64,000 bases of DNA from Candidatus Iainarchaeum sp. (GTDB lineage: Archaea; Iainarchaeota; Iainarchaeia; Iainarchaeales; DTGL01), in the NCBI GenBank assembly GCA_026396995.1, contig JAPLVS010000054.1, positions 24,052 to 88,051 on the forward strand, in the 5' to 3' direction. The position numbers and the translations under genes are program-made. The notes below the pieces were generated by a model that did not search any database, had not been told where the DNA came from, and saw only the letters and a list, made by a program, of their open reading frames with translations. Of this stretch, positions 11,267 to 63,476 are shown in pieces (position 1 is the stretch's first letter; each line of letters opens with the position of its first letter).

Positions 11267-11341
11267 TAGCGGGGAAAGGATTTGAACCTTTGACCTTCGG
11301 GTTATGAGCCCGACGGGCACTCCAGGCTGCCCTACCCCGCT
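11267..11341 (-). tRNA. Initiator tRNA-Met (anticodon CAT)
   Basis: Manual fold gives acceptor AGCGGGG/CCCCGCU with an A1:U72 pair, an anticodon stem with three G-C pairs (GGG/CCC), loop CUCAUAA, and a TTCAAAT T-loop. No CCA is encoded. Confidence 0.85.
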
Positions 11342-19639: not shown

Positions 19640-19918
19640 AAAGCGTGGGCACGCCCTGAAATCGATTTGGCCTGAAAGGCTGGAGTGACCCACTGCATTC
19701 CTCGCTTCCGTTTACCTCAAAGCATTTCGCTTAAAGGCCACCGTTGCTTTCTTCCGAACCTGGCGGGTTCACCCTTAGGCAAAACCTAAGAGGACAGAAG
19801 TTCCTTGTAGTGCAATGGCTCCGGCTTTCCAGGAAAAACCTTTCCCAAGGCTTCGGTCCCGGCGTGAAGCGGATTTCCGGCTACAGGGAACCGCTGCCTC
19901 CCCAACCTAGCCCACAAA
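19640..19918 (-). ncRNA. ffs: Signal recognition particle RNA (7S/SRP RNA)
   Basis: On the minus strand, GGUGAACCCGCCAGGUUCGGAAGAAAGCAACGGUGGCC matches SRP RNA helix 8 (GGAA tetraloop, AGCA). CACUCCAGCCU pairs with the 5' CCUGGAAAGCCGGAG to form helix 5. The terminal helix is GUGGGC/GCCCAC. A hairpin plus T8 run lies at the 3' end. Confidence 0.65.
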
Positions 19919-32795: not shown

Positions 32796-34718
32796 ATGGC
32801 TTTGTCTGAGTGGAGCGAAGAAAAAGGCTTTTTTGCAAAGAACAAGCCTAAGCGGGAAGAAGGCTCAAACCCTGACAGCGAATGGGAAAAACTCGAGCAG
32901 ACTTTGCTCAGGCGGAAAGACCAGGCCAATTCAATGGATGAGCCTGACGGTGCCCTGATTGCATTGATAAACCAGCTTGATTCCGAACTAAAGGAAAAAA
33001 AGCAGGGCAAGGCAGATGAAAAGGCGCTTGAGCGCTCAAAGGACACGCTGGCAATGATCGATGAAAGGCTGCACGGCACAGACTGGCCTGTGAGGGAACT
33101 GCAGAACAAAGTCAGGAAGGCGGCTGCAGGCGAAAGCAGGGAAGCGATGCCTGCCGCCAGAAAAGCACCGGAGGAAACCAAAATGGCTGCAAATTTTGAT
33201 GTTAAAAAAGAAGAGGAAAAAATAAGGAAAGCCATGGAGGCAAAACTGAGGGAAGCCGGGCAGGCCCAGAAAGAAGACATGTTCGAGGAAGCTGAGCCTG
33301 AAGACCTTGAAGCAGGCGGAAGCGCCGAACCGGCACAGGGCAAGGCTGCAGTCGTGGAAGACGACCTTTTCGAGCCAGAAGAATCCAGGTCGGGTGCGCC
33401 TGAACCGTTGGATGAAGCCGCGGAGGAATCCTTCGAGGAAGAATTCGAGGAAACAGAAAAGCCGGCAAAGGCTGAAAAAAAGGCAGCCGAGCAGCCATCA
33501 AAAAAAGAAAAAAAGGAAGTGTCGCGCGATTCATTCAAGGGAACCGTTGACCTTGAAAAAGCGGAATTTTTGTACAAGGCTTCGGTCAACCAGCTTCTCA
33601 AGGCGCAGCTTGAAAACGGAGCAATCATTCCGACAAGCAGCGAAAAGAGTTATCTGCACATTTACCCGAGGGACCTTGCCTTTTGCACGCTTGCATTGGT
33701 GAAAGCCGAAAGATTCGATGAAGCGCAAAAAGCGCTTGATTTTGCCTTAAGGCACCAGGACAGGAAAACAGGCTGTTTCCCGCAAAGGTGGGACGAGGCA
33801 GGGAACAACAACGGCTACAAGCCGGTGCAGCCAGACGCCACAGCGCTCGTGCTTTACGCTTTCGCAGAATATGTGCTTGAAAAAAACAATGTCGATTTTG
33901 CTGAAGTGAACTGGGACCGCATAGAGAAAGCCATTGATTTTTTGAATTCGAAAATCGTATCAGACAAAAACCTGGTGTTTGCGCCGTCCTCTGTGCACGA
34001 ATTCCCGCCGATGGAAGAAGGCTATGAAATCTGGGCAAATGCGGTTTGCTGCGCGGCATTCAGGGAGCTTTCCAAGGTCGCAGAAAAAATAAAGGCAGAA
34101 TATCTCCCATTGAGCAAGGAAAACGCCCTCAAGGATTCGATGCTGCAGTACCTGTGGAATTCGAGAAAGCAGTGCTTTGTAAAAACCATAAGGCTGAGCG
34201 AATCCAGTTCAGTGATGCTCTGGCCTGATGCCTCTGTCCTCGCTCTTTCCTTCTTTGATGTTTTCGCCCCGAACGACAAAAAAATCGTTTCGACAATAAA
34301 ACTGCTGGATGAAAAATTATGGCACAAGTCTTTCGGCGGAATCTCAAAATTCGGCCCGGTTGAAGGCGTTGAAAAAGGCGGTTTCGGGGCAAGCCCGTTC
34401 TTCTCGCTCCTGCTCGCCGACTATTATATCAAGGCAGGCGACAGGGAGAAAGCCGAAAAGTTCCTGAACTGGGTTATTAGCGTGGGACAGGCAGGCTCGC
34501 TGCCTGAACATGTTTCAACCAAAGAGGATTTCGAGGCGTTCGTGCTGGATTTCGGGGACGCCGGCCTCCTTAACAGGAACACAATGAAGCAGATCAACAG
34601 CGTCAGGGAAAGCGGCGATTTCAAGAACGGCATTGCAAGAATCACTGATCCGTTCTCGATGGCGCACGCCGCATTCATCCTTGTCTGGAAAAACTACAAG
34701 GAAAAATTCATGAAGTGA
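32796..34718 (+). CDS. Protein with a ~250-aa acidic/Lys-rich disordered N-terminus and a GH15-like (glucoamylase/trehalase-type alpha/alpha-6 barrel) C-terminal domain
   Basis: SYLHIYPRDLAFCTLAL matches the GH15 Y-x-x-x-W-x-RD-x-AF motif with W replaced by Y. Repeated helical hairpin pattern downstream. The N-terminal 250 aa are E/K/A low complexity. Confidence 0.45.
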   Translation: MALSEWSEEKGFFAKNKPKREEGSNPDSEWEKLEQTLLRRKDQANSMDEPDGALIALINQLDSELKEKKQGKADEKALERSKDTLAMIDERLHGTDWPVRELQNKVRKAAAGESREAMPAARKAPEETKMAANFDVKKEEEKIRKAMEAKLREAGQAQKEDMFEEAEPEDLEAGGSAEPAQGKAAVVEDDLFEPEESRSGAPEPLDEAAEESFEEEFEETEKPAKAEKKAAEQPSKKEKKEVSRDSFKGTVDLEKAEFLYKASVNQLLKAQLENGAIIPTSSEKSYLHIYPRDLAFCTLALVKAERFDEAQKALDFALRHQDRKTGCFPQRWDEAGNNNGYKPVQPDATALVLYAFAEYVLEKNNVDFAEVNWDRIEKAIDFLNSKIVSDKNLVFAPSSVHEFPPMEEGYEIWANAVCCAAFRELSKVAEKIKAEYLPLSKENALKDSMLQYLWNSRKQCFVKTIRLSESSSVMLWPDASVLALSFFDVFAPNDKKIVSTIKLLDEKLWHKSFGGISKFGPVEGVEKGGFGASPFFSLLLADYYIKAGDREKAEKFLNWVISVGQAGSLPEHVSTKEDFEAFVLDFGDAGLLNRNTMKQINSVRESGDFKNGIARITDPFSMAHAAFILVWKNYKEKFMK

Positions 34719-34808
34719 TATCAAAAGACAGCACTATCAGTATTTCCTAAATGTCTTTTGATAGTTATCAAAGGACAAATTTATACGATTATTTTTGTCC
34801 TTTGATAT
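34717..34808 (+). repeat. Double-hairpin intergenic repeat element, copy A
   Basis: ATATCAAAAGACA-N21-TGTCTTTTGATAGTTATCAAAGGACAAA-N14-TTTGTCCTTTGATA fills the whole spacer between convergent genes. Confidence 0.75.
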
Positions 34809-34811
34809 GAA

Positions 34812-38713: not shown

Positions 38714-39373
38714 ATGAGGATCGACAAGCGGACCCTTGAAGCAAGCCCGTTTCTCGGGGTTTTCGGCATCCTCACAGACAAAATATTCCTTGTCCCCTCG
38801 GGCATCCTTGAAAAGGAACTGCAGGGATTGCAGGATTTTGCAGGCGTTGAAGTATTGAAGGCAAGCATTGCCGCTTCCCCGCTTTTAGGCGTCCTTGGAA
38901 TCGGCGTTAAAGAAAAGATAGCGGTTTCGGACCTCGCAAGGGACAGGGAAATAGTTGCACTGGAAAAGGCAGGCCTGAAGGTCACAAGGATTGAAGGTGC
39001 CACGGCGCTCGGCAACCTTGCGCGCATCACCGAAAAAGGCGGTGTTTTGTCACCCATACTTTCAAGAGAGCAATGCGAAAAGCTCGAATCCTTTTTCGGC
39101 GTGAAAATGGTCGAGAGCACTGTCGCAGGCCTTGACCTTGCCGGTTCAAGCATTGTGGCGAATTCGAAAGGCTTCATAGTGCACCCCGGGGTTTCAAAGG
39201 AAGAGTTCGCCCGCATAAAGAACGCATTGCAGGTAGAGGGCATTCCTACAACCGCGAACTACGGGGACAGGTTTGTCGGGAACAGCGTTCTCGTGAACAG
39301 CAATGCGATGCTTTTGGGCGTTAACACTACAGGCCACGAACTGATGAGGATTGAGGAGGCGTTTTTGGGCTAG
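38714..39373 (+). CDS. eif6: Translation initiation factor 6 (aIF6)
   Basis: Five-fold pseudo-repeat with SPFLGVFGILTDKIFLVP / SPLLGVLGIGVKEKIAV. 219 aa. Confidence 0.85.
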   Translation: MRIDKRTLEASPFLGVFGILTDKIFLVPSGILEKELQGLQDFAGVEVLKASIAASPLLGVLGIGVKEKIAVSDLARDREIVALEKAGLKVTRIEGATALGNLARITEKGGVLSPILSREQCEKLESFFGVKMVESTVAGLDLAGSSIVANSKGFIVHPGVSKEEFARIKNALQVEGIPTTANYGDRFVGNSVLVNSNAMLLGVNTTGHELMRIEEAFLG

Positions 39374-39383
39374 CATTCTTAAC

Positions 39384-39470
39384 ATCAAAAGGCATTGATT
39401 CAGGAATTTTTCTGGCCTTTTGATAACTATCAAAGGGCAATATTGTTCATTTATTTTTGTCCTTTGATAT
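39384..39470 (+). repeat. Double-hairpin intergenic repeat element, copy B (diverged)
   Basis: ATCAAAAGGCA...GGCCTTTTGATAACTATCAAAGGGCAA-N16-TTGTCCTTTGATAT lies between eif6 and rplX. Confidence 0.6.
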
Positions 39471-39542
39471 AACGCATAAAAAACCATTCATCCATTAATT
39501 TTTGGAAATATTAATTTTTTGGAAATTCCAGTTGGTGAGAGC

Positions 39543-39726: not shown

Positions 39727-39816
39727 TATCAAAAGACATTAATAATGATATTTTCTAAATGTCTTTTGATAGCTATCAAAGGACAAATTTATGCGATTAT
39801 TTTTGTCCTTTGATAC
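39727..39816 (+). repeat. Double-hairpin intergenic repeat element, copy C
   Basis: ATATCAAAAGACA-N21-TGTCTTTTGATAGCTATCAAAGGACAAA-N14-TTTGTCCTTTGATA lies between rplX and pfdA. Confidence 0.75.
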
Positions 39817-41942: not shown

Positions 41943-41987
41943 GTATGGGCGCTAGCTTCGCCCAGCAATATTGGCAGGATTGTGTAA

Positions 41988-42719
41988 TCAATCGCTTCTT
42001 TTTCGCCTGAACAAGCGCTTACGTTTTTTTCCGACAAGTTCTTCTACTACAAGCTTTTGCACTTGCCTTGAAACCTCTTCTCTCGGAAGCGTCGTGTCGA
42101 TTTCAAAAACACGCACGCCTTTTGCCCTGAGTTCGGCAAGCCTTTTTTCGTTTGCCTTCTCCATTCTTTCCAGGTTTTCAAGTTTTTCGTGCTTGAAAAC
42201 AACTCCGCCCCACTCGTCCACGACATTCCTTTCCGCAATCCTTTTCACTGAGACCTCTGGCGGTACCCTAAGGTGTATTACGGCGTCAGGCAAAGGGCCG
42301 GCTACAGCCCTGGCAGTGCTTTTTGTAACAAACCTCGGGATTTTTCCAGCGTATACTGCGGTAATTGCCGTCGCGTCGGTCACCGGATCCCTTTGGAAAA
42401 GGCGCACATCGCTTTTCCTTGTGGCAACCCTTGCAGCGCGGAATGCGGACCCTGCAATCGCACTGCCGGCCAGGATTTTTCTGTCGGAGCCTTTTTCGGC
42501 GCCTCTTTTTATGAGGCGCTTGCCATAGCCTCCAACCCTTCCGGCAACCCCCTTGAACCCGACAAAGTGCGGGGCGTCAATTATTGCAACATTAAGGCCC
42601 TTTTCCCTGAGTGCCTGCTGCAGCTTCCCGGCAACTGTTGTCTTGCCGCAGCCGTCGATTCCGACAATGGCGATATCTGTCGGGCGCTTTCTTTTAAAAG
42701 GGCGTTTCAAAGGCGGCAT
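41988..42719 (-). CDS. Thymidylate-kinase-like P-loop NMP kinase paralog (short form)
   Basis: N-terminus MPPLKRPFKRKRPTDIAIVGIDGCGKTT has a Tmk-type P-loop. A DRY-like QRDPVTDATAI...AVYAG follows. It is the last gene of a four-gene minus-strand operon. Confidence 0.45.
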   Translation of the reverse strand: MPPLKRPFKRKRPTDIAIVGIDGCGKTTVAGKLQQALREKGLNVAIIDAPHFVGFKGVAGRVGGYGKRLIKRGAEKGSDRKILAGSAIAGSAFRAARVATRKSDVRLFQRDPVTDATAITAVYAGKIPRFVTKSTARAVAGPLPDAVIHLRVPPEVSVKRIAERNVVDEWGGVVFKHEKLENLERMEKANEKRLAELRAKGVRVFEIDTTLPREEVSRQVQKLVVEELVGKKRKRLFRRKRSD

Positions 42720-44032
42720 TATTTTTTCCTTCTTCCCAATTTTGCCTTCACTTTTTTCTCAATTGAAATTTTCCATTCAAGGTAGCGCTTGGCCCCCCTG
42801 GTTATTGTTTCGACCTTCGAGGACACATTGTATTTGCCGTAAAGCCTTCCGAGTTTCTTGTATGCGAAATGGTCTGCCAGAATGCCCATCATTTCCGGTT
42901 CCCTTACAATCGAGGAAACAATATAAGCGGTTCTCCCAGCAAAGGGAATTGCTCCGATGAGCATCGCTTCCCCGCTGTGCAATCTCTTGATTTTTTCATA
43001 TTCTTCCGCAGAAATATTTCCGGCCAAGCGCCTTGCCATCCCAATTCCCCTCATAGCGGCCGTATAGGCCGGCCTTCCCACGGTTCCGACGCCGGCCATT
43101 ATTACCGGCACCCCGCTTATTGCCAGATGCACTCCGAAGTGCGTCAAAAAATCCGAAAAATAGCCTTTCCCTATTTTTTCCCTCAATTCCGCAGCTTTCT
43201 CCTGACCAATTCTTCCTTCTTTTTCCCAGCGCCAGATTCCATCAACCATAAATTGCATGGCCTGCTCTTTCTTTCGCTCCAGATATTTTTTCCTGCCTTT
43301 TTCCATTAGCCTTTTTTCTTTCAATATCCTTTGCACCTGCCCTAAAACTGCCTCCTTTGGAAGAGATGCATCTATTTCCAGAATCCACACGCCTTTTGAC
43401 GCAAGCTCCGCCTTGCGTTTCTGATAAGCAGAATTCAATCCCTCAAGATTTTCAGGCTTTTCATGCTGGAATTCAATTGCGTGCAAGCCACTGCCACCAG
43501 CTCTTTTTTTTGCAAGCCGTTCGGCAGCAGTTGCAGGCTCTACCGAAAGAAATACTGCAACATCCGGCAAAGGCCCCCCTGCAATCCGCCCGGCTGCCTT
43601 GGAAAACGCCAGGATTATCCTTCCGCCGTACTGCCTTGCCAAGACAGGCGCTTCAATTGCCGGATGCCTTTCAATAATCCTGACAGTGCTTTTTCTCGAT
43701 TTGGCCCTTGCCATCCTTGTCGGAAGCGAGGCAATCGCTCCGCCAGCTGCAGCAAGCCTCTTTGATTGTTTTTCCGCTCCTTTTGCACTAATACTCCTTC
43801 CAAACCCACTCACTCTTCCAATCATTCCGCCATAATCCTGGAAATGCGGAACATCCAGGACCGCGGTTTTGGTGCCCTGCGCATTCAACCGGCTTTGCAA
43901 TCCCCTTGCAAGTGTTGTTTTCCCCGCGCCATCAATCCCCACAATCGCAATATCAGTGGGCCTTTTCCGCCTGAACAATCTTTTTGGGGGCATAAATATG
44001 ATGCTGTTTGTTGAGTTTAAATTACTTTTCAA
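42719..44032 (-). CDS. Thymidylate-kinase-like P-loop kinase paralog fused to a ~200-aa C-terminal domain of unknown function
   Basis: The N-terminal 230 aa are paralogous to 41988-42719 (PPKRLFRRKRPTDIAIVGIDGAGKTT, ERHPAIEAPVLARQYGG). The C-terminal domain is uncharacterised and moderately hydrophobic. TAATG overlap with the downstream gene. Confidence 0.45.
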   Translation of the reverse strand: MKSNLNSTNSIIFMPPKRLFRRKRPTDIAIVGIDGAGKTTLARGLQSRLNAQGTKTAVLDVPHFQDYGGMIGRVSGFGRSISAKGAEKQSKRLAAAGGAIASLPTRMARAKSRKSTVRIIERHPAIEAPVLARQYGGRIILAFSKAAGRIAGGPLPDVAVFLSVEPATAAERLAKKRAGGSGLHAIEFQHEKPENLEGLNSAYQKRKAELASKGVWILEIDASLPKEAVLGQVQRILKEKRLMEKGRKKYLERKKEQAMQFMVDGIWRWEKEGRIGQEKAAELREKIGKGYFSDFLTHFGVHLAISGVPVIMAGVGTVGRPAYTAAMRGIGMARRLAGNISAEEYEKIKRLHSGEAMLIGAIPFAGRTAYIVSSIVREPEMMGILADHFAYKKLGRLYGKYNVSSKVETITRGAKRYLEWKISIEKKVKAKLGRRKK

Positions 44033-44071
44033 ATCGCAATGGCCAAGCCGGCCAAAAGGCTTTCCGGTTGC

Positions 44072-44860
44072 TTATTGCTTTACCACCGGCACAAGCCTTC
44101 CAGACCTTTTCACAAGCTTGCCGTCAGGCGTGAACACAAACATTTTCGCCTTTCCAGTGCGAGGGTCGATGGCTTCGATTTTGCAGTATTTTTCCAGGTC
44201 ATCTGTCGGAACGAACCTGCCCTGCTTTGTAACATTTTCAGATTGCCCCTGCCTTTCATACCCGATGCTTTTGAAAATGCCCTCAAATTTGCCTGGTTTA
44301 AACGAATGTTCACTATAAAACTCTATTTTTCTTCCGGGATTGCCGAAGGAAGGGCGGTTTCCTGCTCTCTTTGCAGGATTTTGGGAACGCACATGCCTTT
44401 CAGCGCGGGAAGCAAATTTTTTGCCGAGCCCAAGCCCCCGCATGCGTTCCGGGATGCGCATGTGCGCCAGGTCTTCTCTGGCAAAGAAAAAAGGGGCGCC
44501 TTTGTCAGGTATGACATCAGTTCCGATTCCCTTTTTCAGCTGGCACTCCAATAACGAGATAATGGACCCGCCCCTGGCAATGATAATTTTCCCGTCCGAA
44601 AGCAGATGTGCACCTCGGAGATTGCCAAAAATAGTTTTCAATGGCACCATGATTTCCTGCTCTGGCCCAATCCAGAATGCGGCATATCTGTTATTGCTTT
44701 TTTGCAGGTCTATCTCCAGCGGCCACACAAGCGGCTTCTTTCCTGCCGCCCCTCTTGCAGTGTCCCTTCTCTGCCTTTTGGCTTCGAGTTTTTCCCTTTG
44801 ATTTGGATATTTATATTTTCTTTCCGCTTTCGGGATTCTGCGCCTTGATTTTTGTGGCAT
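44072..44860 (-). CDS. Hypothetical protein with GNAT-like motif-A segment; paralog of 44870-45693
   Basis: Basic N-terminus. GKKPLVWPL, IIIARGG, and AHMRIPERMRGLGLGKKFASRAERHV, which resembles acyl-CoA-binding motif A. C-terminal IEAIDPRTGKAKMFVF. Confidence 0.4.
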   Translation of the reverse strand: MPQKSRRRIPKAERKYKYPNQREKLEAKRQRRDTARGAAGKKPLVWPLEIDLQKSNNRYAAFWIGPEQEIMVPLKTIFGNLRGAHLLSDGKIIIARGGSIISLLECQLKKGIGTDVIPDKGAPFFFAREDLAHMRIPERMRGLGLGKKFASRAERHVRSQNPAKRAGNRPSFGNPGRKIEFYSEHSFKPGKFEGIFKSIGYERQGQSENVTKQGRFVPTDDLEKYCKIEAIDPRTGKAKMFVFTPDGKLVKRSGRLVPVVKQ

Positions 44861-44869
44861 TTTTTCATC

Positions 44870-45693
44870 TCACTTGACCGGAAAAACGTATTCCTTCACT
44901 TTGCCTGTCCGCGGGTCGATTGCTTCAATTATATGGAAGCGGGACATATTTGATGTCGCTTTTACCCTACCTTCTTTGTGGTATTTCCTCAACACAAACT
45001 CATCTTCTTCTGGGCTTTCTTGCCAGTACCTAATTTTTGTAAAAAGCCGGTCAAAAAGGTCCCGGCGGTTTTCGCCCATCCAAATCGTATTTTTTCCGTC
45101 CTTTTCTCCCTTACATCCCTGTCGGCCCTTGAAGCAAACCTTTCGGCCAGTCCAGTGCCTCTCAGTTTTTTTGGCAAATACATGTGCGCGATATCTGCAG
45201 TGGGCTCTATTGCAAAAAAAGCCATTGCCCAGTGCTTGTCAGTAATCGGTTGCTCACCACCGTTTTTCCATTCATACAGTTTTATCGCTACAAATGGCGA
45301 ATAGTTTGGCACGGTCCTCGCAACAATGATTCTGCCTCCAGGTCCGCGGTAAACCCCCTGCAATAATCTGCCATGTTCCGCCAGCGGAACCGGCACCTCG
45401 TTTTTTCCGTCGAGCAGAACCACTTCCTTCCTTTTGGTTTTTTCCCCAGTTGGCCCCGCGATTTCCCGTTCCACCACGCCTTGTTCCAACATGGTCAAAG
45501 GCTGGACTAATGGTTTTTTGCCGGCTTTTCCCAGTGCTTCCCTGGCAGGAATACCCTCAGCAATCAGTTTTCTTGCCCTTCTTTTTCTTTCTTCCCGCCT
45601 GGCCAAATTCCTTGCGAACCTTTTCCTGGCAAACTTGTCAGGCTCAGGCTTGCCGGCAGTCAGGTATTTTTGAGGAATTTTCCGTGAAGACAT
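44870..45693 (-). pseudogene. Paralog of 44072-44860, interrupted by a frameshift (234-aa N-part 44989-45693 plus 69-aa C-part 44870-45079)
   Basis: Shares GKKPLVQPL, RIIVART, AHMYLPKKLRGTGLAERFASRADRDV with its neighbour. The paralog's C-terminal motif IEAIDPRTGKVKEYVF lies in the separate overlapping 69-aa ORF. Confidence 0.4.
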
Positions 45694-45733
45694 AAATCAA
45701 TTAGTGCCGGACCAGAATAAATTCCTATCCTGT

Positions 45734-61097: not shown

Positions 61098-61445
61098 TCA
61101 CAGCAGCTTGAGTTTTCCTGTGAATTTGTTGATTTTGCTTTCTTCGGCTGGGCCGATGCCGATGCATGTGGCTGTGCCAGGCTCCACTTGTGTCCTGCCA
61201 GCATCCTTGATGAGCGCGCACGGCACTTCCTTTTTTGCCTGCATGAACAAGTCCAATAATTCTTTTTCCGAATTTACCTTGAGCACGATTTTTGGCATTC
61301 CGCTGTTTTTCCATTCCTCGACAAGGCCTTCGTCCTGCACTTTGTCGAGCGCTGCGAGAGAGGCGTGCGCTGCCTGCGCCGCAATCTTGCCTGGCTTCAT
61401 TTTGAGGTCTTTCCTCACAATTATCGCCTGTTTCAGTGAATTCAT
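61098..61445 (-). CDS. pth2: Peptidyl-tRNA hydrolase, archaeal type (Pth2)
   Basis: KQAIIVRKDLKMKPGKIAAQAAHASLAA...TQVEPGTATCIGIGP is the PTH2 signature. 115 aa. Confidence 0.85.
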   Translation of the reverse strand: MNSLKQAIIVRKDLKMKPGKIAAQAAHASLAALDKVQDEGLVEEWKNSGMPKIVLKVNSEKELLDLFMQAKKEVPCALIKDAGRTQVEPGTATCIGIGPAEESKINKFTGKLKLL

Positions 61446-61509
61446 GCAATTTCCCGTCCAAAACCCCTTCAGGTAATATTTTTATAGGACAAGCCCCTAT
61501 TTTATTCTT

Positions 61510-61598
61510 ATATCAAAGGACCAAAGTAATGTATAAATTGGTCCTTTGATAGCTATCAAAAGACAGTTAGAAAACCAGTAATGCTGTCTTTTGATATT
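61510..61598 (-). repeat. Double-hairpin intergenic repeat element, copy D (inverted orientation)
   Basis: Its reverse complement reads ATATCAAAAGACA-N19-CTGTCTTTTGATAGCTATCAAAGGACCAA-N13-TTGGTCCTTTGATA. It sits in the divergent promoter region between pth2 and 61683-63476. Confidence 0.75.
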
Positions 61599-61682
61599 AA
61601 TCGATTAATCGCCGAGGCTGGTTGGGAAGGGAGCGGAAAAGGCTGGAATTGCGGTTGGGTTTTGGTTCGGGCGGTTTTGGGA

Positions 61683-63476
61683 ATGGCTAAATTTTGGGTT
61701 TTGGTTTTGCTTTTCGTGCTTTTCTTGCCTCTTGTTTTAGCCCAGGTTTTGGATTCCGATAATGACAATGTTTCTGACACTCAGGAAGCGCTCGATGGAA
61801 CCGACCCCAATAATGCAGCTGACAATCTGCTTGAGATAAGGGTTGACGGCGCGCTTGTGGTCGGCAACACGATTGCTGTTTCCTTGATGCATCCATTGCT
61901 CGGCAATGTAAAGGATGTGGAGTTTGTTTTTTCTTTCGGGGAAAGCAGCATTCCAATGAATTCCGGGCCGAGCGGGATTGTTTCCTTCAAAATCACAAGC
62001 GCAGGCCGGCATCTTGTCGAGGCGCAGAAGGGGGCTTTCAGCCGCTCTTATGAATTTTACCCTGAATGTTCGGTGCAAACCCCTGTAATCACAAGCCTTT
62101 CTTCTGCAATCGGCCTGCTTGCGCTTTTCATAATGCTCGTGGTTGCGGTCCTTTCTTTTGCAGGCTTCAGGAGACTGCTGCTTGCGACCGAATCCGATTA
62201 CCCGCTGAAAAAGCATGCCACAATCATTCCGGCTTATGTCGGCGTTTCGGCTTTCCTTGTGGCTTTTTCGCTGTACAATTCTTTCGGCCAGCTTTTTGGA
62301 ATGGCAGTATTGTTTTGTTTCCTTTGCCTCCTGCTTTTTTCGATATGGCTTTTGAGGGAAACCGGCATAATGAAGCCTGTGCGCGAAAAAAGCCTGAAAA
62401 AGGCAAAGCGTGCAATGAAAAGCCTTGCATTTCCTGCGCTTCTGGCATCTGTCTTTTTTGAAAGGATTGGGCGGAAAAAGGAAAAGCCAGCTGCCGCCGA
62501 GGGCGGCTTTGCAGAAATCATGGAGTTAAAGGAAGGCATTTCAGAAAGCCTTGGGCGGTTCGAGGATGCCAAGAAGAAGACAGCCGAAGCGAAAGAGCCG
62601 ATGGCAAGGCAGGAGGCAATGGACGAGCTGACGAATGAAATTTCCTCGCTCAACCATTACCTTAAAAGGCTGCTCGGGTTTAAGGAGAAAAAGCCTGAGC
62701 CTGTGAAAACAGAGCGCCAGAAAACACTTGCCGACCTGAGGGAAGAGAAAAGGACGCAGATAATGGTCGAAGATCTTCTTGACCAGATGGCAAAAGAACT
62801 GGATTTGAAGGAGTTGCCGGATTTTGCGCCTGTTGCCGCCGGGGAAAAGAAAAAGGCCGCGAAAGGGATTACTGGACTGCTTGCTGCAATTTTTATCGGC
62901 GGAAAAAAAGAGCCTTCCGCAGAAAATGCGAACATCGAGCTTTCCCTGTCCGATGAATTCGGCAATCCTTTGCCTGCTTCGGGGGCTGAATTTTTTATCG
63001 GCGGCAAAAAAACAGAGCCTTTGCTTGCAAGGGAAAACACTGCTTTTTTCCGCCTGAAAGAGGGCGAGCACCAGCTGTTTGTGAGGGTGCTGGGCTTTGT
63101 TGACAACTTTTTGGAGATTGAAGCCTTGAAGGAAAAGCGCTCGTTCAAGGCAGGCCTTCTGGCCGACTTTAAGCTTTCAGTGACAGATGAGAAAGGGGAA
63201 AGCCTGAGGGAAGCGTTCGTCAACATTGTCGACGAAAACGGGAAAAGGGTTGAGGACGTGCTCCAGAACATTATCTGGAGGACGCCGACTCCGAACAATG
63301 CGCCTGACGGCGTTGCTGCCATTCCTTTGAACCCGAAAAAGCTCACTTTTGAGTCGCTTAGGGTGAAAATAGTAAGGGCAAATTATTCCCTCAAGGAAAT
63401 AATAATCCCGGCAAGCAGGATTTCCACCCAGAAAGCGCTGGAAAAAACAGTTTCTCTTGAAAAACTCCAAAAATAG
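61683..63476 (+). CDS. Hypothetical membrane protein with signal peptide, Asp-rich calcium-binding-like motif and several TM helices
   Basis: Signal peptide MAKFWVLVLLFVLFLPLVLAQ. DSDNDNVSDTQEALDGTDPNNAADN resembles thrombospondin type-3 / OmpA-like Ca-binding repeats. Then 4-5 TM helices and a large soluble C-terminal region. Confidence 0.45.
   Translation: MAKFWVLVLLFVLFLPLVLAQVLDSDNDNVSDTQEALDGTDPNNAADNLLEIRVDGALVVGNTIAVSLMHPLLGNVKDVEFVFSFGESSIPMNSGPSGIVSFKITSAGRHLVEAQKGAFSRSYEFYPECSVQTPVITSLSSAIGLLALFIMLVVAVLSFAGFRRLLLATESDYPLKKHATIIPAYVGVSAFLVAFSLYNSFGQLFGMAVLFCFLCLLLFSIWLLRETGIMKPVREKSLKKAKRAMKSLAFPALLASVFFERIGRKKEKPAAAEGGFAEIMELKEGISESLGRFEDAKKKTAEAKEPMARQEAMDELTNEISSLNHYLKRLLGFKEKKPEPVKTERQKTLADLREEKRTQIMVEDLLDQMAKELDLKELPDFAPVAAGEKKKAAKGITGLLAAIFIGGKKEPSAENANIELSLSDEFGNPLPASGAEFFIGGKKTEPLLARENTAFFRLKEGEHQLFVRVLGFVDNFLEIEALKEKRSFKAGLLADFKLSVTDEKGESLREAFVNIVDENGKRVEDVLQNIIWRTPTPNNAPDGVAAIPLNPKKLTFESLRVKIVRANYSLKEIIIPASRISTQKALEKTVSLEKLQK

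Follow-up and report, generated by a model that had tools for sequence, protein, structure and literature searches.

Two divergent genes frame the locus described here. On the minus strand lies pth2 (61098-61445), a peptidyl-tRNA hydrolase gene whose homologues all carry PF01981, the best named of them coming from a Diapherotrites MAG; on the plus strand lies a membrane-protein gene (61683-63476), with a 597-aa product that has no Pfam match and orthologues of 593-598 aa. Coordinates are those of the window, meaning the whole 64-kb stretch of DNA that was analysed. The window is archaeal, with an Archaea_SRP RNA at 19643-19917 and six tRNAs, and its closest relatives are Iainarchaeota, among them a Candidatus Iainarchaeum MAG (L064) of about 82-90% nucleotide identity. 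An earlier note on this DNA had placed an inverted copy of a repeat family between the ATG of pth2 at 61445 and the membrane-protein start at 61683, and both PF01981 and the orthologue lengths agree with this picture of the neighbourhood. The repeat itself, copy D, occupies 61511-61596 on the minus strand: 86 bp of non-coding DNA with TATC...GATA ends, 65 nt upstream of the pth2 ATG and 86 nt from the membrane-protein start (83 nt when counted past the flanking duplication). On either side stands the same trinucleotide, TTA on the plus strand and TAA on the minus strand, forming a left (61508-61510) and a right (61597-61599) target-site duplication. The extent first proposed for the repeat, 61510-61598, was thus in the right place but slightly wider than the element proper, and the remark that no duplication was obvious at this copy does not stand.

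Copy D is built of two hairpins. The G-type hairpin (61511-61551), with TATCAAAGGAC arms at 61511-61524 and 61538-61551 around a loop of 13 nt, was delimited by fold, alignment and pair counts, and the A-type hairpin (61554-61596), with TATCAAAAGAC arms at 61554-61567 and 61583-61596 around a loop of 15 nt, by fold and motif matches. Between them a GC spacer (61552-61553), present in 59 of 78 copies of the family, forms the centre of a 20-bp palindrome, CTTTTGATA-GC-TATCAAAGG. The predicted fold consists of two perfect hairpins of 13-14 bp, with z = -8.3 to -8.5 and 0 shuffles as stable. The canonical orientation is the one in which the A-type hairpin comes first, and for copy D this is on the minus strand. 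A profile HMM built from the family bears out the inverted orientation, scoring 58.7 bits on the minus strand vs 28.7 bits on the plus strand, and makes D the sole minus-strand member among the four copies of the window. Two inverted-repeat pairs, I1 and I2, likewise tie 61531-61574 to copies A and C, with 91-95% complementarity, loops included. The GGACCAA/TTGGTCC change, rightly noticed as compensatory in hairpin 2, is an A-T to C-G swap at the loop-closing pair, a position where A-T is found in 65/78 copies and C-G in 2/78.

Relatives of the window show the same intergenic region without the repeat. Orthologous pth2/membrane-protein intergenic regions from which D is missing were found in L092, L093 and L094, with Pth2 proteins 96%, 83% and 76% identical to that of the window, and are 90-96 nt long. 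The L092 empty site reads AATCGGT-TAA-GAATAAAATAGGGG, vs AATCGAT-TAA-[element]-TAA-GAATAAAATAGGGG in the window, with a single TAA at the exact insertion point. A second empty site concerns copy B, which is missing in the roughly 90%-identical L064 (GCATTCT-TAA-CGCATAAAAAACC), where the alignment gap is exactly 90 nt, that is, 87 + 3. Read as ancestral states, these empty sites confirm the insertion of copies D and B; the lack of D in relatives could formally also stem from precise excision, which is transposon behaviour as well. The insertion of D is recent.

The insertion point lies 24 nt upstream of a putative pth2 TATA box, TATAAAAA (61479-61486, minus strand), which is kept within a conserved block, CTATAAAAATAT, in the alignments of relatives and is intact in the window. 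On the other side, D now separates the membrane-protein gene from AATAAAATAG, a conserved AT-rich block of the ancestral 95-nt intergenic region. Copy D has remodelled the upstream region of the membrane-protein gene while leaving the putative core promoter of pth2 in place, and any effect of D on expression would be hypothetical. Compared with L092, window positions 61600-61682 contain two more insertions, of 31 nt and 18 nt, just before the membrane-protein start; they sit in a G/T-rich stretch of repeated GGTTTTGG-like motifs that runs into the first codons of the gene.

The three other copies of the window are all on the plus strand. With one mismatch allowed, the 11-mer TATCAAARGRC occurs 18 times in the window vs 5.99 expected, a count reached in 0/100 shuffles, and 16 of these matches build the four elements A, B, C and D; the profile HMM also recovers exactly four copies. 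Copy A (34719-34807) occupies the gap between convergent genes and is flanked by a TGA duplication (34716-34718 and 34808-34810), the left TGA doubling as the stop codon of the ORF at 32796-34718. Copy B (39383-39469), downstream of aIF6, lies within a TAA duplication (39380-39382 and 39470-39472). Copy C (39727-39815), between rpl18Ae/LX and prefoldin alpha, has the flanks TAA/CAA, a decayed duplication; it is common to the window and L064 and therefore older. At 39368-39382 the window aIF6 stops at a TAG nine bases (three codons) before the TAA targeted by copy B, and the aIF6 of L064 ends at that very TAA, so that the C-terminus differs beside the insertion. Elsewhere, downstream of ftsY, a 3.8-kb block with four minus-strand ORFs (41943-45729) is missing from the syntenic L064 contig (L064:2251-2261), and the borders of this indel carry no MITE motif.

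Beyond the window, a scan of a genome collection with the 18 specified bases of the element centre returned 91 loci. The complete two-hairpin element was found at archaeal loci (Ca. Iainarchaeum, Ca. Forterrea, Diapherotrites and other archaeon MAGs) in 16 species-level genomes; MAG JBDRIL01 alone has at least 19 such loci. Bacterial matches to the 18-nt centre consist of the central palindrome alone, none having the outer arms, and viral contigs held no complete element, giving only 3 chance matches to this palindrome. Copies are flanked by unrelated genes: when 500 flanking ORFs were clustered all against all, the largest family had only 5 members, NAD-dependent sugar epimerases. From one genome to another, copies thus occupy non-orthologous positions. 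Loop identity is 0.83 within genomes vs 0.64 between genomes, as would be expected for lineage-specific amplification from local master copies.

Across the family the layout is TATCAAAAGAC-loop-GTCTTTTGATA-GC-TATCAAAGGAC-loop-GTCCTTTGATA. It contains four terminal motifs of 11-13 bp, TATCAAA(A/G)GAC, in alternating orientation. The arms of the A-type and G-type hairpins are one base apart, and either strand can fold into an A-type and a G-type hairpin joined by GC, so that orientation is set solely by hairpin order. Typical elements measure about 86-91 bp and most copies 84-92 bp, all of it hairpin sequence with no coding capacity. The outer arms TATCAAAAGAC and GTCCTTTGATA are the terminal inverted repeats; they did not form part of the search pattern of the genome scan, and the left one is exact in 67/78 copies and the right one in 52/78, with 10 more carrying a GCC variant. 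Size variants also occur. Short ones of 57 bp have loops of 4-7 nt (L043 and L056), and longer ones (L104:2392-2530, L107:1010-1150, L138:10241-10385 and L116:4520-4660) bear two extra small hairpins, between the main hairpins or inside loop 2, in the same arrangement and with locus-specific sequence. At L020:5525-5694 (Ca. Iainarchaeum andersonii, AQRS01000042), two elements stand head to tail, 3 nt (TAA) apart, which suggests insertion beside an existing copy or a tandem duplication.

Identical 3-nt flanks were found first in 45/60 copies and later in 62/78 non-redundant copies, drawn from 16 Iainarchaeota genomes and from metagenomes. Among the 62 matching pairs, TAA accounts for 32, TTA for 25, TGA for 3 and TCA for 2; shuffling the flank pairing in 10,000 trials gave a mean of 29.6 matches and a maximum of 42. 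Flank matches of 2 nt or 4 nt are nearly absent and the repeat length is exactly 3 nt, a figure to be read with the proviso that a 3-bp duplication and a 1-bp duplication with T and A as element ends cannot be separated by sequence alone. The middle base of the flanks co-varies as a direct repeat, and we are therefore dealing with a target-site duplication, not with an extension of the palindrome.

This duplication bears on the REP half of the earlier suggestion of a MITE-like or REP-like mobile element. A REP/REPIN-like element would have its hairpins recognised, in single-stranded form, by a RAYT, an HUH tyrosine transposase of IS200/IS605 type, and would leave its target unduplicated. The Iainarchaeota repeats do resemble REPs in being high-copy, intergenic palindromic doublets with strongly conserved stems and variable loops, in which compensatory changes keep the arms paired. 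However, HUH single-strand transposition makes no target-derived direct repeat such as the 3-nt one, with its co-varying middle base, at 62/78 copies; the 500 flanking ORFs include no recurrent neighbour gene, RAYT-like or other; and convergent 3' ends are not enriched, with 10/74 copies. Such an origin is the least probable of the readings that we weighed. The MITE half, by contrast, is sustained by the duplication and by the empty sites. The element is small and non-coding, has terminal inverted repeats and a duplication of fixed length, is present or absent between relatives and is dispersed in many copies at unrelated loci, with amplification that is lineage-specific. Copy D is very probably an insertion of a MITE family specific to Iainarchaeota (Diapherotrites, DPANN archaea).

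The hairpins themselves raise the question of whether the element works as RNA. Could it be primarily a functional structured RNA (a terminator, processing site, stabiliser or sRNA) that does not move? Both strands fold very stably (z about -8.4), and some copies abut stop codons. Yet there is no Rfam match at the gathering threshold, only sub-threshold chance matches with E values of 0.085 and 0.15; close relatives differ in which copies they have, a duplication marking the boundary; and loop sequences are genome-specific. The stems do not help this reading either. Compensatory A-T to G-C changes in the arms arise independently in each hairpin (A-T 70 and G-C 6 in hairpin 1; A-T 57 and G-C 9 in hairpin 2), and the mispaired intermediates are symmetric, with A.C 7 vs G.T 5, from which neither strand of the element appears to behave like an RNA. 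As a test of the RNA strand, the asymmetry between G.U and A.C was set aside, the counts being symmetric and uninformative for RNA.

The loops argue in the same direction, being independently inverted in about one-fifth of copies. Scored against hairpin order, their orientations are FF 37, FR 4, RF 4 and RR 3-4, and all four combinations occur inside one MAG. Both orientations, each loop independent of the other, are seen at L003, L010, L029, L069, L074, L075, L079 and L085 of MAG JBDRIL01 and also at L002, L065 and L071; ATTAATTATGAAACTTTTTTAAT alongside ATTAAAAAAGTTTCATAATTAAT is an example of such a flip. Such flips imply that small inversions have happened repeatedly between the 13-17-bp arms. 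Flipped loops and homogenised arms would both result if the arms recombined or if templates were switched between them, so that apparent covariation need not mean selection for pairing. Comparable inversions are known from non-coding hairpin loops of chloroplasts, where a loop between short inverted arms is likewise found in both orientations among homologous copies. These chloroplast inversions are attributed to intramolecular recombination or to template switching at hairpins. The Iainarchaeota flips differ from them in taking place inside a transposon, in each hairpin independently, and among paralogous copies in one genome.

Gene context was examined with gene calls from a codon-usage model, which gave genes on both sides of 74 copies: 25 lie between divergent genes, 10 between convergent and 39 between co-directional ones. 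The family is thus not restricted to 3' ends, as had been supposed from copy D, and the orientation counts across genomes likewise vindicate the view that both orientations occur. The 25/74 divergent copies are at odds with a primarily structured-RNA function. The strands are nonetheless unequal, in a way that would suit a terminator: T-runs of at least 5 are found on the canonical strand of 60/78 copies vs 16/78 on the antisense strand, and co-directional contexts show a 27:12 bias (27/39 copies) in which the T-poor, antisense strand lies along transcription. Archaeal RNA polymerase terminates at oligo-T. It is plausible that the 27:12 bias reflects selection against terminators inside operons. 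Copy D itself has no T-run of at least 5 on either strand. Taking both sides together, a non-mobile structured RNA is highly improbable, and the MITE reading is the one followed here.

The element also touches gene ends and gene starts closely. When a gene end faces it, the stop codon is the duplicated TAA or TGA itself in 14/62 cases, and an insertion at a stop codon is neutral, the stop being restored by the duplication. Among predicted starts facing the A-side, about half are at a distance of 19-40 nt; a spacing of 22-29 nt is soft, since the start codons are predictions. In 44/71 copies the edge of loop 1 that reads outward, 11 bp inward of the terminus, has the sequence ATTAAT or ATTAAA, and this edge matches the local TATA consensus upstream of tRNAs; ATTAAT is absent from the loop edge of copy D. 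In the window, a TTTAAA/ATTAAA box precedes the mature 5' ends of the tRNAs at 11341, 14117, 14248, 52080, 55585 and 55700 and of the SRP RNA at 19917 by about 21-38 nt. This box recurs about 22-25 nt ahead of the start codon in many protein genes of the window, a spacing that suggests that mRNAs of this lineage are often leaderless or have short leaders. The element terminus GATATWA was also considered as a TATA box, and it does not match the TTTAAA/ATTAAA consensus upstream of the local tRNAs. The loop-edge ATTAAT might, as a hypothesis only, fit a TATA box better than this terminus. Two loci deserve mention beside these counts. At L053:2392-2577, 15 nt separate the A-side end of an element from the start of a tRNA-Gly(UCC) gene, so either the promoter of this gene lies inside the MITE or its transcript crosses the MITE. 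At L091:3424-4444 (Ca. Iainarchaeum andersonii), 1 kb beside an element has no convincing ORF and could be an unannotated RNA gene or a decayed gene.

The conservation of the motif calls for a reading of its own. From genus to genus the terminal motif hardly varies, and inner and outer arms are equally conserved, which is unexpected for a decaying MITE, so that an additional constraint may exist. One source could be a conserved host protein that binds double-stranded DNA, for which the 20-bp palindrome TTTGATA-GC-TATCAAA and the two outer half-sites would form an array within a regulatory or chromatin module. The almost invariant 11-mers in a background of drifting loops, the classic dimer-type palindrome at the centre and the orientation independence would all be explained by such an array; for the last of these, which had been taken to fit a DNA-level binding site, random insertion orientation suffices. 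What weighs against it is that the flanking genes are functionally unrelated, and that arm changes are coordinated within a hairpin and not between hairpins, a pattern expected from pairing or arm-to-arm conversion but not from four sites that change separately. Insertion polymorphism and duplication, moreover, show that copies arrive by transposition, and the best candidate for the binding protein behind the conservation is the transposase itself. As a primary function a binding-site array is highly improbable, while a secondary role of the element as a binding or promoter module could exist beside transposition.

A broader version of such a role can be sketched, though we consider it unlikely: the element would be more than a parasite, its four 11-mers, invariant throughout the phylum even in the inner arms, being bound by a conserved, possibly domesticated protein, and its copies would serve as portable gene-boundary modules. 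Each could bring an outward TATA box from the A-type loop edge ATTAAT, 11 bp inside the terminus, together with oligo-T terminators on one strand. The sketch would fit the 27:12 bias, the A-side starts 19-40 nt away in about half of the cases and the tRNA-Gly gene 15 nt from an element. If it were true, the independent loop flips could be a switch that moves the T-run between strands.

Returning to the MITE interpretation, the following course of events is proposed. Acting in trans, a transposase would recognise the element by its terminal repeats and make cuts staggered by 3 nt in a T-N-A target, usually TAA or TTA, where the element could insert in either orientation; repair of the stagger would then duplicate the trinucleotide. 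By analogy of the duplication, the enzyme would most likely be a DDE transposase of the IS5 / PIF-Harbinger type. In the window lineage the element landed in a TAA of the 95-nt divergent promoter region between pth2 and the membrane-protein gene. The transposase class, deduced from the duplication, and the cut-and-paste chemistry are inferences. The 3-bp duplication with its T-W-A / T-N-A preference (TAA, TTA, TGA and TCA, in the counts given above) is a trait of the IS5 / PIF-Harbinger (PHIS) group: PIF/Harbinger elements, which are related to IS5, make 5'-TWA-3' duplications (PMC4482050), and among archaea an IS5-related MITE bounded by a 3-bp direct repeat has been recorded (PMC3852290). 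Searches of the window, of about 60 eight-kb loci and of the ORF-poor gaps beside copies turned up neither an autonomous partner nor a transposase gene whose terminal repeats match, and nothing transposase-like emerged from these gaps or from lone terminal motifs. A metagenome scan for an A-type hairpin without a G-type hairpin after it, aimed at the ends of full-length IS, returned mostly ordinary copies on the other strand, since the hairpin is palindromic, along with unrelated GC-rich bacterial hairpins.

The element can be set beside several known systems. MITEs of the IS5 / PIF-Harbinger type (Tourist-like, and prokaryotic IS5-related) share with it a short, non-coding body, terminal inverted repeats of 11-16 bp, AT-rich targets and a 3-bp T-W-A or T-N-A duplication (PMC4482050); a 140-bp MITE of Methanosarcina acetivorans, related to ISMma12 of the IS5 family, has a 16-bp inverted repeat and a 3-bp direct repeat (PMC3852290). 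In contrast to these, the Iainarchaeota element has a DPANN host and no identified transposase or full-length IS, carries its motif four times as two complete hairpins instead of one repeat pair around unrelated DNA, and conserves this motif across a phylum-level group. Other archaeal MITEs, those of Sulfolobus (SM1-SM4) and of Haloquadratum/Methanosarcina, are also non-autonomous and intergenic and have been catalogued with the lengths of their inverted and direct repeats (PMC3852290). They share sequence with autonomous IS and are species- or genus-specific, whereas the Iainarchaeota element has no identified parent and occurs in at least 16 species-level genomes. MITEs are dense in some DPANN genomes according to a census (PMC11602168).

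Among bacteria, the Correia elements (CREE) of Neisseria are similar in being hairpin-forming MITEs, of about 100-150 bp, that insert at TA-containing targets beside genes in either orientation. The ends of Correia elements can give rise to promoters, and these elements can also change how transcripts are processed and terminated. They differ from the archaeal element in their bacterial host, their 2-bp TA duplication and their single pair of 26-bp inverted repeats, and their promoter and terminator effects have been shown experimentally, whereas those of the Iainarchaeota element are putative. REP/REPIN elements with their RAYT also form inverted doublets of a short conserved palindromic motif, intergenic and in many copies per genome, but REPINs do not duplicate their target site and are associated with a REP-flanked RAYT gene, while the present element has a 3-bp duplication and no such gene near its copies. 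A search of the literature on Diapherotrites/Iainarchaeum repeats, DPANN MITEs and the terminal motif returned no description of this family, which is a previously undescribed member of a well-known element type.

For the annotation of the window, the four repeats are transposon insertions, not conserved regulatory RNAs. In DPANN archaea the genomes are tiny and densely packed with genes, and experimental genetics hardly exists. A MITE family active enough to differ between relatives of about 90-96% identity points to ongoing transposition in Iainarchaeota, offers a marker for strain-level population genomics, and directs attention to a transposase that recognises TATCAAARGAC. Many copies lie within about 30 nt of predicted start codons or exactly on stop codons, and in this lineage the family may thus have a part in shaping promoters and operon boundaries.
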